64,000 bases of DNA from Escherichia coli O127:H6 str. E2348/69 (lineage in GTDB: Bacteria; Pseudomonadota; Gammaproteobacteria; Enterobacterales; Enterobacteriaceae), in assembly GCF_000026545.1 (NCBI RefSeq), contig NC_011601.1; one strand, given 5' to 3'. Positions 9,946 through 37,230 of the stretch are shown in pieces. The notes under the pieces are model-generated. The model was not told the DNA's origin and made no database searches. It worked only from the letters and a program-made list of their open reading frames with translations. A program made the translations under genes and the position numbers. Numbering within the stretch: the stretch's first letter is position 1; every line of letters begins with the position of its first letter.

Positions 9946-11433
9946 TTATCCGACGCTGTGTTCAAGACTGATGGCGAGGAGTTTTTGTGCTTCAACGGCA
10001 AATTCCAGCGGCAGTTCCGAGAACACGTCTTTGCAAAAACCGTTAACAATCATCGAGATGGCATCTTCTTCGCTGATCCCGCGTTGCAGGCAGTAAAACA
10101 GTTGATCTTCACCAATACGTGATGTCGTTGCCTCGTGCTCCAGCTGAGCGCTGTTATTGCGACATTCGACATACGGGAAGGTATGCGCCCCACAATTAGC
10201 GCCAATCAGCATTGAGTCGCACTGAGTGAAATTGCGCGCATTGGTTGCCGTCGGCATGATTTTCACTAAGCCGCGATAACTGTTCTGACTATGTCCGGCA
10301 GAGATCCCTTTCGAGATAATGGTCGATTTGGTGTTTTTACCGATGTGGATCATCTTGGTGCCGGTATCCGCTTGCTGATGACCGCTGGTCAGCGCCACTG
10401 AGTAAAACTCACCAATGGAGTTATCGCCGCGCAAAATGCAGCTGGGATATTTCCACGTAATCGCTGAGCCGGTTTCTGATTGCGTCCATGACATTTTGCT
10501 GTTTTCGCCTTCGCACAAAGCACGCTTAGTGACGAAGTTGAGAATACCGCCGGTGTTGTTATCGCCAGGGAACCAGTTTTGTACCGTGGAATATTTCACC
10601 TCGGCGTTTTTATGGATGATGACTTCCACCACCGCCGCGTGTAACTGATAGCTGTCACGCACCGGAGCGGAACAGCCTTCAATGTAGCTAACGTAGCTGT
10701 CTTCGTCGGCCACCAGAATGGTGCGCTCAAACTGCCCGGTTTTTTCCGCGTTAATACGAAAATAGGTGGAAAGTTCCATCGGGCAACGCACGCCTTTAGG
10801 CACATAAATAAACGTACCGTCAGAGGCTACCGCCGCATTAAGTGCGGCAAAGAAGTTGTCATTCCCCGGCACCACGGTGCCGAGATATTTACGCACCAGT
10901 TCCGGGTGATCGTGGATCGCCTCGCCAAAGGAACAAAAAATAATTCCCTGCTCCGCCAGTTTTTCGCGATAAGTAGTGGCAACCGAAACAGAGTCGAAAA
11001 TGGCATCCACTGCCACCTCTTTGCCTTCCCGCACGGGAACGCCCAACTGCTCAAACGCCGCCTCCACCTCTTTACTTAAAAAGGCGTTCGCGCCAGTTTG
11101 CTGCACCGCGCCGGGTTCAGACGCGCAGTTGTCGTCACAATGACCGCACGATGGTGCCGAGTAGTAGCTGTAATCCTGATAATTCAGCTTGTCGTAGTGC
11201 GCTTTCAACCAGTGTGGTTCTTCCATCTCCAGCCATGCGTGATAGGCATTGAGACGAAACTCCAGCATCCACTCCGGCTCATTACGCTTCGCCGAAATTG
11301 CGCGCACCACCTCTTCGTTTATCCCCTTTGCCAGCTCATCGGTGGCTAACTGGGTGAAGAATCCTTCTTTATAATTCAGCGGGCCGCCGGTCCAGGTTTT
11401 GACATCGTCAGTTGCTTCAGTATTACGAGACAT
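9946..11433 (-). CDS. sufB: Fe-S cluster assembly scaffold SufB
   Basis: ORF-track ORF is 508 aa; start set at internal Met ([10 protein letters not shown]...) giving 495 aa. Confidence 0.9.
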
Positions 11434-11441
11434 AGTACCGC

Positions 11442-11810
11442 CTATACCCCAAAGCTTTCGCCACAGCCACATTCATTCTGGGCTTTAGGGTTGTGAAATT
11501 TGAATATCTGATTAAGTCCTTCACGAACGAAATCGACTTCCGTGCCATCAATAAAAGGCATCGCTTGCAGCGGGACAAACAGCTTCGCGCCGTCGTGTTC
11601 AAACAGCAGATCGTCTTTGTCCGGCTCGCTAACACTGTCGAGCACATAGCCAAAGCCCGCGCAGCCCGTTTGCTTCACGCCTAAGCGCACGCCGATCATA
11701 CCAGGCTGCTTTGCCACCAGTTCGCGGATGTGTATCGCCGCTGCGGGTGTCAGCGTTAAGCCTTGCCAGGCGAAATCCTGTGGATTAAAGGTTCCTGAAT
11801 GCATGTCCAT
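11442..11810 (-). CDS. sufA: Fe-S cluster A-type carrier SufA
   Basis: 122-aa ORF ending ...CGCGESFGV. Confidence 0.92.
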
Positions 11811-11854
11811 CGATTTACCTCACTTCATCGCTTTCAGCGTATAACAGCATGTTA

Positions 11855-11871
11855 GTGATAATGATTATCAG
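11855..11871. promoter_or_regulatory. Fur-box-like site in suf promoter (gataatgattatc)
   Basis: Close match to the GATAATGATAATCATTATC Fur consensus ~50 bp upstream of sufA start; a second similar AT palindrome (tagataatgattattatcta) at ~11988-12007. Confidence 0.5.
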
Positions 11872-12089
11872 TTCAACCCAGCAAACGCAGGGGCTTTAGC
11901 GTAAAACATGCTTTTTACCTGCTTTTAATAAGCATAGACCCTGATTTGTGGGTTAACAGGCACGCTAAGAATTAGGTATCTCATTGTTAGATAATGATTA
12001 TTATCTAAGGAGCATTAAGGCTGTGATGAAAAAGAAAAAGTTGTATTGAAAATGACTATTTAAGGGATAGGTAAAAAAGTGCAGCGTTC

Positions 12090-12175
12090 AGAAATAAGAA
12101 AACCCTTAAGTCTGTGCGACACAGGCTTAAGGGTTTCTACCCCATCCGGCGCTTATCTCCGGCACTCACAGTGGC
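12090..12175 (-). ncRNA. Candidate small RNA (position expected for rydB): two stem-loops, the second followed by a U-rich tract on the minus strand
   Basis: Long perfect inverted repeat aacccttaag...cttaagggtt plus a second ccgg hairpin in the sufA–ydiH intergenic region; identity to RydB not confirmed. Confidence 0.35.
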
Positions 12176-12358
12176 TTAGCTCTTGAAGGGGCAATAAGGA
12201 TAATCTCATAAAGCTAACCCACTGTTTTAACACAAACTGCGATTTGTATTATTTTTGAACGTTATCAGTCGGGTAGATAGGCAGTATTAAGAAGGCCCTC
12301 GAACCTGGACGAAGATTAATCCAGGCCGATTTGGCGAACTCGCGACATTAAATCAGGA

Positions 12359-12547
12359 TCAATGCACGCCCAGACGCCAGGCGAAGTAGATTTCTTCTTT
12401 TAATTCAGCAGAAGAGAGAGTAAGCAGGTCAGCAAATTCAAGTTCTAATTGTTTCAGACGCTTGAGATATTGGGCAGGTGAAAGATTGCTTTGGTCACGG
12501 CGTAAAAATTCAATGGCCAGTTGGGTGGGATCAAGTTGAGTAGACAT
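12359..12547 (-). CDS. ydiH: Small protein YdiH
   Basis: 62-aa product from internal Met of the 72-aa ORF; synteny. Confidence 0.6.
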   Translation of the reverse strand: MSTQLDPTQLAIEFLRRDQSNLSPAQYLKRLKQLELEFADLLTLSSAELKEEIYFAWRLGVH

Positions 12548-12646
12548 AGCATCCTCGCTTTTAGACAAGACCTGCACAGTATACCACCGTTTACTGTGCA
12601 GATAACAACCAAAAGCAATATGCGTCTCACTTTTCTGGTTACAACG

Positions 12647-13057
12647 TCACAAAATGGCGGTCGTCAATCGTGAAGAACAGCACAAACGCCCTTTCTCATC
12701 GAAGATTTCAATCTGCCAGACCTGGTGACGCGAACCGAGATGCAACGGTTTGCATACGCCGCGCACCCGCCCTTCTCGTGCCGAGCGGACGTGGTTAGCA
12801 TTGATTTCCAGACCAACCACTTTTTGCTCACCTTCGGTACATAAATAACCGGCAACGGAACCGATACTTTCGGCCAGTACCACGGATGCACCTCCATGCA
12901 GCAACCCGAAAGGCTGCTTTGTCCGCGAGTCTACTGGCATTGTCGCTTCAAGGGTGTCATCACCAATATGTTCAAAGCGAATATCCAGCAACCCCACCAT
13001 GTTTCCTTCACCCATGGCATTCAGTGCTTCCAGGGTGATTTTTCGTTTCCATATCAT
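12647..13057 (-). CDS. menI: Hotdog-fold thioesterase (1,4-dihydroxy-2-naphthoyl-CoA hydrolase type)
   Basis: 136-aa ORF with LHGGAS motif; synteny (ydiI). Confidence 0.85.
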   Translation of the reverse strand: MIWKRKITLEALNAMGEGNMVGLLDIRFEHIGDDTLEATMPVDSRTKQPFGLLHGGASVVLAESIGSVAGYLCTEGEQKVVGLEINANHVRSAREGRVRGVCKPLHLGSRHQVWQIEIFDEKGRLCCSSRLTTAIL

Positions 13058-17796: not shown

Positions 17797-17901
17797 ACGG
17801 TTATAAATCAACATATTGATTTATAAGCATGGAAATCCCCTGAGTGAAACAACGAATTGCTGTGTGTAGTCTTTGCCCATCTCCCACGATGGGCTTTTTT
17901 T
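17797..17901 (+). ncRNA. rprA: RprA small regulatory RNA
   Basis: Sequence acggttataaatcaacatattgatttataagcatggaaatcccctgagtgaaacaacgaattgctgtgtgtagtctttgcccatctcccacgatgggcttttttt matches remembered RprA, ending in hairpin + T-run. Confidence 0.85.
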
Positions 17902-18039
17902 TAACATTTTTCCGCTTCGCTACCTCGCCCCTCACTCTTTCCAATAATGTTGCACAAGATACTGTGACTCTCTTCAAGCCGTCAGCAGGCTGATAATGTT
18001 ATTTATATTTTATTGTTTATTTCATGCAGCCATTACACG

Positions 18040-36907: not shown

Positions 36908-37038
36908 ATGCGTGCCCATTCCTGACGGGATGGGCATTTCTGCGCAACTTGTTGTCTTCTCAACAAATTACTACTTGCTCTGGCTCGCCATAATATTGAT
37001 AATAAGAATCATTGTTATATAAATTATTATTAATTTTT

Positions 37039-37230
37039 ATGCGTTATACGGATAGCAGAAAACTCACGCCTGAAACGGATGCCAATCACAAGACCGCTTC
37101 CCCGCAGCCCATCCGGCGAATTACCAGCCAGACACTGTTAGGTCCGGATGGCAAACTGATTATCGATCATGACGGGCAAGAATATCTGCTCCGTAAAACT
37201 CAGGCTGGCAAGCTGCTGTTGACCAAGTAG
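37039..37230 (+). CDS. ydiE: HemP-like small protein YdiE
   Basis: 63-aa product from internal Met of 72-aa ORF. Confidence 0.65.

Follow-up and report, generated by a model that had tools for sequence, protein, structure and literature searches.

A Fur operator and a Fur-like palindrome that probably flanks the IHF site upstream of sufA in Escherichia coli E2348/69

The DNA upstream of sufA in Escherichia coli O127:H6 strain E2348/69 carries two palindromic A/T-rich elements that both look like binding sites for Fur, which raises the question of whether this promoter region has two Fur operators or one. The window analysed here is a stretch of 64,000 nucleotides; the E2348/69 record matches it at 100% over 11400–12700 and, in its RefSeq annotation, has sufB, sufA, ydiH, menI and ydiJ on the minus strand, in keeping with the assignment of the region to the suf promoter in the initial annotation. 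The two strings that had been described there as resembling the Fur consensus, gataatgattatc and tagataatgattattatcta, are found at 11857–11869 and 11988–12007, respectively. Both elements lie in the first 200 bp upstream of sufA, inside the spacer between sufA and the small RNA rydB, which is annotated between sufA and ydiH in K-12. The elements and the genes that bound them are as follows.

11442–11810, minus strand: sufA coding sequence, first gene of sufABCDSE (open reading frame and RefSeq annotation of the identical E2348/69 record)
11851–11870, no strand assigned: proximal Fur box, -9 to -28 from the transcription start, made up of a 19-mer (11851–11869) and a 7-1-7 core (11856–11870)
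11987–12008, no strand assigned: distal palindrome TTAGATAAT-gatt-ATTATCTAA, a Fur look-alike at -145 to -166 from the transcription start, read here as the probable A/T-rich 5' flank of an IHF site
12132–12192, minus strand: rydB small RNA, which bounds the suf regulatory region upstream (Rfam RF00118, 83 bits)

The promoter was anchored with the table of transcription start sites of Kim et al. 2012 (PMC3415461, supplementary file 2), which gives a sufA start at NC_000913.2 position 1762442 with an untranslated region of 32 nt. The upstream 51-mer in that table is identical to the window sequence and sets +1 at 11842. It is the sole sufA start in the table, which contains none between it and the rydB start at 1762792 (window 12192), the next one upstream. 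K-12 and the window are identical from the sufA ATG up to 11898, a segment that includes the Fur box, both promoter hexamers and the transcription start. The elements of the promoter are listed below.

11842, minus strand: sufA transcription start (+1), giving a 32-nt leader before the ATG (Kim et al. 2012)
11849–11854, minus strand: putative -10 hexamer of PsufA, TAACAT, read from the sequence at -7 to -12 from the start and assigned by its geometry
11871–11876, minus strand: putative -35 hexamer of PsufA, TTGAAC, with a 16-nt spacer, likewise read from the sequence
11877–11897, minus strand: conserved block AAAGCCCCTGCGTTTGCTGGG at -35 to -55, from the alignment, where the published IscR site (ORE-III) lies

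The -35 hexamer is kept across genera in the alignment as TTGAAG or TTGAAC. The promoter that fits the mapped start is TTGAAC-16-TAACAT (11849–11876), and not the pair ATCACA-16-GATAAT reported by Shimada et al., which is considered below.

The proximal element is a perfect TGATAATnATTATCA. Its best match to the Fur 19-mer GATAATGATAATCATTATC is GTTAGTGATAATGATTATC at 11851–11869 (16/19), which is the sole site with three or fewer mismatches in the 64 kb, against a mean of 0.01 in shuffled sequences, and positions 11856–11870 form a perfect copy of the 7-1-7 motif TGATAATgATTATCA (15/15). The box covers the -10 hexamer and the spacer of the only transcription start mapped for sufA. Its conservation was followed in a species scan with SufA, one genome per species, which yielded 80 enterobacterial loci. 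The 7-1-7 box is present with zero to two mismatches and an invariant core in all 80 of these, and it stands at -60 to -63 from the ATG in 76 loci, being displaced in the other four.

Occupancy by Fur in vivo was taken from the Fur pan-regulon paper PMC10164565, which gives ChIP-exo peak coordinates for nine E. coli strains. The peaks were mapped onto the sufA start codon in the record of each strain, and six strains were mapped in this way; Sakai, the coordinates of which were irreconcilable with the record version, and KO11FL were left out of the count of peak positions. The positions of the Fur peaks upstream of the sufA ATG are as follows.

MG1655: 63–75 nt
W3110: 63–75 nt
Strain W: 63–75 nt
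ATCC 8739: 57–69 nt
CFT073: 31–43 and 65–77 nt
042: 30–42 and 63–75 nt

The proximal box, which spans 41–59 nt upstream of the ATG and has the same sequence in all six mapped strains, is bracketed by these peaks, and sufA is up by log2 3.1–7.4 in fur mutants of eight strains (PMC10164565). This box is the Fur operator of PsufA already described for K-12 by Patzer & Hantke 1999, Lee 2003, Outten 2004 and Lee 2008, as these are cited in passages of PMC8593673, PMC12683245 and PMC7229158. The initial annotation was right about this site: it overlaps the -10 hexamer and the spacer, is kept in 80 species and lies between ChIP-exo peaks, and it is a textbook Fur operator of a stress-inducible Fe-S cluster assembly operon.

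No Fur ChIP-exo peak was found at the distal element (178–197 nt upstream of the ATG) in MG1655, W3110, W, ATCC 8739, CFT073 or 042. CFT073 and 042, as well as Sakai, carry exactly the distal allele of the window, and MG1655, W3110, W and ATCC 8739 have the K-12 variant. The ChIP-exo experiments were done under particular growth conditions, and a weak Fur site could be masked by IHF occupancy.

The distal element consists of two 9-nt arms, 11987–11995 and 12000–12008, that are perfect inverted copies of each other with 4 nt between them. Counting perfect arms of at least 9 nt with loops of at most 6 nt, there are 20 such repeats in the window (about 11 distinct loci once nested ones are merged) against about two in first-order Markov simulations, a roughly ten-fold excess, and judged by eye most of the others resemble RNA hairpins. 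The element matches the 7-1-7 motif at 12 of 14 positions, and sites with two or fewer mismatches number four in the window against 0.18 expected. Against the Fur 19-mer it scores 14/19, and nine positions in the 64 kb score equally well or better. The 12-mer GATAATGATTAT is exactly common to the proximal and distal elements, 133 bp apart, and in the sense of sufA the distal element reads GATAAT followed by AATCATTATC, that is, the 19-mer consensus without GAT. The arms are spaced by 4 nt, a distance unlike the 1 nt or 7 nt that separate GATAAT and ATTATC in the Fur models. As a sequence match the element falls below typical functional sites, though above chance. The palindrome is statistically unusual, and we are not comfortable with pure coincidence because it combines perfect 9-nt arms, a place among the nine best 19-mer matches and a 12-nt identity with a true Fur box. 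Measured against chance, the match counts make the resemblance to Fur boxes real for both elements, as had been proposed, and function is a separate question.

Two further sites in the window come within reach of the 7-1-7 motif. The site TGATATTTATTATCA at 2150–2164 is one mismatch from it and lies in the spacer between two minus-strand open reading frames, whose sizes suggest ydhY (208 aa) and ydhZ (69 aa); Fur ChIP-exo peaks for ydhZ or the ydhY operon in W and 042 (PMC10164565) would be about 130 bp away from it if the strains are colinear. The site TGATAATAAGAATCA at 36997–37011 lies about 30–45 nt upstream of an ATG near 37040 that we take to be the start of ydiE, and it coincides with the Fur ChIP-exo peak that is given for ydiE in MG1655 and corresponds to window positions 37005–37017.

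The published description of the suf upstream region comprises three elements: ORE-I for OxyR, ORE-II for IHF, and ORE-III, at which IscR and Fur are mutually exclusive (PMC8300815). The OxyR site is far upstream, and IHF is required to bring OxyR to the promoter (PMC8593673; PMC7229158). The demonstration of IHF binding and bending on the K-12 sufA region is credited to Lee et al. 2004 in the reviews PMC8300815 and PMC8593673. An alignment of Escherichia, Citrobacter and Salmonella contains four conserved blocks besides the Fur box, namely 11877–11897, approximately 11926–11945, the block of the distal element, and 12045–12070. The distal element and the IHF core beside it are positioned between the last of these, which is OxyR-like, and the promoter.

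11977–11989, minus strand: IHF core assigned by orthology, TAACAATGAGATA, at -135 to -147, with two mismatches to WATCAANNNNTTR
12045–12070, minus strand: OxyR-like block CTAT-n7-ATAG-n7-CAAT (CTAT in place of CAAT in other genera), at -203 to -228, strongly conserved in the alignment

The conserved blocks at -203 to -228, -135 to -147 (the core) and -35 to -55 agree with the coordinates that we take to be those of ORE-I (-236 to -197), ORE-II (-156 to -127) and ORE-III with the IscR site (-56 to -35). With these coordinates ORE-II presumably spans the promoter-proximal half of the distal palindrome. The remaining block, 11926–11945 (about -84 to -103 from the start), reads GGTCTATGCTTA(T/A)TAAAAG, is near-invariant from Escherichia to Salmonella and Citrobacter, and has no counterpart among the three published ORE elements. 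The inverted repeat TGCTT-attaa-AAGCA lies within the block, which by eye is loosely like the half-site pattern of NsrR, which is reported to repress suf; a mapped NsrR site of suf was not found in the literature search.

The placement of the IHF core comes from the species loci. The consensus WATCAANNNNTTR is present with at most one mismatch, and in many cases perfectly, on the sufA-sense strand in 60 of the 75 non-Escherichia species, its start being exactly 119 nt upstream of the start of the Fur box. The E. coli 13-mer TAACAATGAGATA, running from 11989 to 11977, stands at the identical 119-nt offset and adjoins the palindrome with an overlap of 2–3 bp; it has two mismatches to the consensus on either strand. 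In Intestinirhabdus alba, a perfect 7-1-7 box stands farther out, 158 nt before the start of the SufA match instead of the usual 61 nt or so, and a palindromic perfect IHF consensus, AATCAATTGATTA, is still at the usual 119-nt offset from that box, an arrangement that suggests a longer sufA leader or a different start codon in this species. A scan of the whole window for the IHF consensus was non-predictive (62 matches against 60.9 expected) and gave none in the suf spacer at one mismatch or fewer. A perfect palindrome at 17802–17825, TATAAATCAACATATTGATTTATA, matches the IHF consensus perfectly on both strands and is located near the 5' end of the RprA small RNA (17797–17904; Rfam RF00034, 118.5 bits), so the consensus alone means little.

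The sequence next to the core shows how the two halves of the palindrome differ. Across the family, the consensus of the 12 nt that precede the core on its 5' side is AAATCCATTATT, the commonest base at each position being found in 31–69 of the 75 species (mean of about 71%), and the E. coli sequence at these positions is ATAATCATTATC; the 20 nt 5' of the core are 80% A+T. Under the far arm the columns are unconserved, the top base occurring in at most 52% of the species. The Fur-like motif itself, at two or fewer mismatches, is confined to the window, CFT073, 042, E. whittamii and one other Escherichia species. Citrobacter, Salmonella, Enterobacter, Klebsiella and the remaining genera lack it: their best 7-1-7 match has 3–7 mismatches and at least four in all but one locus. 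Inside Escherichia the far arm decays, to 8/9 in two lineages, 7/9 in E. whittamii and 5/9 in E. albertii. The conserved near flank and the unconserved far-arm columns together argue that the promoter-proximal half of the palindrome is the flank of the IHF core and that the other half is a recent feature of Escherichia.

The element is also polymorphic within E. coli. At its central base, 11997, the window has A where K-12 has G; E. albertii and E. whittamii share the window state. Among 5414 complete E. coli genomes, 1977 (about 36%) have the window sequence throughout the 61-nt segment 11968–12028, and the other 3437 depart from it. The K-12 G lowers the 7-1-7 match to 11/14, and this base, one on which a Fur dimer would depend, is not fixed in E. 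coli.

These results lead us to read the proximal element as the Fur operator of PsufA and the distal one as A/T-rich DNA that flanks the IHF site (ORE-II) on its upstream side, rather than as a working Fur operator, and we put the probability of this reading at about 0.72. In the proposed mechanism, iron-loaded Fur bound to the 7-1-7 and 19-bp box over the -10 hexamer and spacer (-9 to -28) would exclude RNA polymerase, and it would also exclude the activator apo-IscR, the site of which adjoins the box at -35 to -55; with both excluded, suf would be repressed when iron is sufficient. For K-12 it is established that Fur blocks RNA polymerase and the IscR site, and E2348/69 has the same sequence. 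At the distal site, IHF would bend the DNA so that OxyR, bound at about -203 to -228, could reach RNA polymerase. The lambda H' IHF site is 35 bp long, 18 bp of which lie 5' of the core, and IHF bound in the conserved orientation would by analogy with it cover approximately 11973–12007, including the 20-nt string at 11988–12007. We infer contact of IHF with the palindrome itself, as well as the orientation of IHF, on which that contact depends and which is uncertain, the E. coli core being as degenerate on one strand as on the other. The resemblance to a Fur box probably arose because the conserved IHF flank, ...AAT(C)CATTAT(T/C), is already like the right half of a Fur box, and the lineage-specific GATAAT in E. 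coli would then happen to complete the palindrome. The suggestion in the initial annotation that the distal element could be an IHF site is the one we favour, given the alignment, the IHF consensus at a fixed offset and the conserved flank, and a reading of both elements as Fur boxes does not hold up for the distal one, which has no ChIP-exo peak in any mapped strain, is a weaker match in K-12 and most E. coli, is missing outside a few Escherichia lineages and has arms spaced by 4 nt.

The distal palindrome could instead be a second, low-affinity Fur operator, at which Fur would bind under iron excess, possibly by cooperation with or spreading from other sites, compete with IHF and so veto activation by OxyR. 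The match counts of 12/14 and 14/19 speak for this, as do the sufA-sense reading that lacks only GAT and the exact 12-mer held in common with a proven site; moreover, two of the three other 7-1-7 matches in the window coincide with Fur ChIP-exo peaks (11856 at sufA and 36997 at ydiE), and the third, at 2150, is about 130 bp from mapped peaks of two other strains. Against it stand the lack of a peak in the six mapped strains, even though that data set has many weak intragenic sites, and the form of the element, in which a 3-bp deletion shifts the half-site register and the best 7-1-7 reading has a G-to-A change in one half-site; the base removed by this change is presumably one that Fur contacts directly. 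The majority allele of E. coli, that of K-12, is a worse match, neither allele is fixed, and the motif is missing in other genera, and on balance a second Fur operator seems unlikely to us. A narrower form of the same idea is that in the window allele the IHF flank doubles as a weak Fur operator, so that competition between Fur and IHF would act as an iron veto on OxyR-driven suf induction that the K-12 G allele has lost. We give this only a slim chance; if it were true, a common A/G polymorphism would tune the cross-talk between iron and peroxide at PsufA, a modest story in regulatory evolution. The distal element is placed at -145 to -166 from the only mapped start, and the promoter-like match that overlaps it is one of consensus only. 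That match is the basis for taking part of the palindrome as the -10 hexamer GATAAT (12005–12000) of a second, upstream sufA promoter with its -35 hexamer ATCACA at 12027–12022, which would be repressed by iron through the Fur-like sequence. A consensus scan finds ATCACA-16-GATAAT with 9/12 matches on the minus strand (12027–12000), and Shimada et al. 2014 (PMC3946193) give the same hexamers for a sufABCDSE 'constitutive promoter', the spacer being bound by sigma-70 holoenzyme in genomic SELEX. The hexamers of Shimada et al. are, however, the best match picked in silico inside the bound spacer and are for this reason not independent evidence; promoter-like matches in this region occur at the level of chance (2 against 1.3 expected), the table of transcription starts has only 1762442 for sufA, and ATCACA and the far arm are unconserved outside Escherichia. 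A second promoter was rejected as the main reading on account of the in silico origin of its hexamers and the lack of support among mapped starts, and we consider it highly improbable.

The palindrome might also be the operator of another, Escherichia-specific regulator that binds as a dimer and is neither Fur nor IHF. Such a regulator is favoured by the perfect 9-nt arms around a 4-nt spacer, a form rarer than chance would give, and by an arm spacing that fits neither Fur model; the decay of the arms within the genus speaks against it, and the published suf regulators Fur, IscR, OxyR, IHF and NsrR leave no orphan. We hold this to be very unlikely, and we know of no regulator with such a site. 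SlyA, Lrp, Fis, H-NS, DnaA, Zur, MntR and IscR were compared with the palindrome by eye through their consensus sequences, and none of them fit.

Published data sets were consulted for an IHF position at this locus. The supplements of the paper on FNR and nucleoid-associated proteins (PMC3688515) contain no base-level IHF position, a paper on promoter architecture has nothing on sufA, and a full-text literature search with the site sequences returned nothing on suf. The paper on FNR and nucleoid-associated proteins also lists an FNR ChIP peak 'rydB (w/i ydiH)' at NC_000913.2 1763161, which corresponds to window position 12561 approximately and to the 5' end of ydiH, and its table of differential-expression ratios has a value of 0.23 for ydiH (PMC3688515).

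With the proximal element as the Fur operator and the distal one as the probable IHF flank, both belong to the already described architecture of PsufA, and the outcome matters little beyond housekeeping. A by-product is the placement of the IHF core at the level of the base through phylogenetic footprinting over 80 species, and a caution follows for motif scans, in which A/T-rich IHF flanks may score as Fur boxes.

Compared with known systems, the proximal site shows no difference from the Fur operator of the K-12 sufABCDSE promoter other than its occurrence in strain E2348/69 and not in K-12, and K-12 and pathogenic strains agree in the position of the Fur peak in vivo. The distal element resembles canonical overlapping 7-1-7 Fur boxes, such as that of ydiE (36997–37011), in its GATAAT/ATTATC hexamers, its A/T richness and its palindromic form, and differs from them in that it lacks 3 bp of the 19-mer, is located 145–166 bp upstream of the transcription start and is without Fur signal in vivo. 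It is like the K-12 IHF site (ORE-II; Lee, Yeo & Roe 2004) in its position between the OxyR-like block and the promoter, and canonical WATCAANNNNTTR is found at the orthologous position in most Enterobacteriaceae. Its A/T-rich 5' flank is a likeness to the lambda H' site. What sets it apart from the ORE-II type is a degenerate E. coli core with two mismatches, a flank that is a perfect palindrome mimicking a Fur box, and the A at 11997 in the window allele as opposed to the G in K-12, the strain in which binding of IHF was shown.
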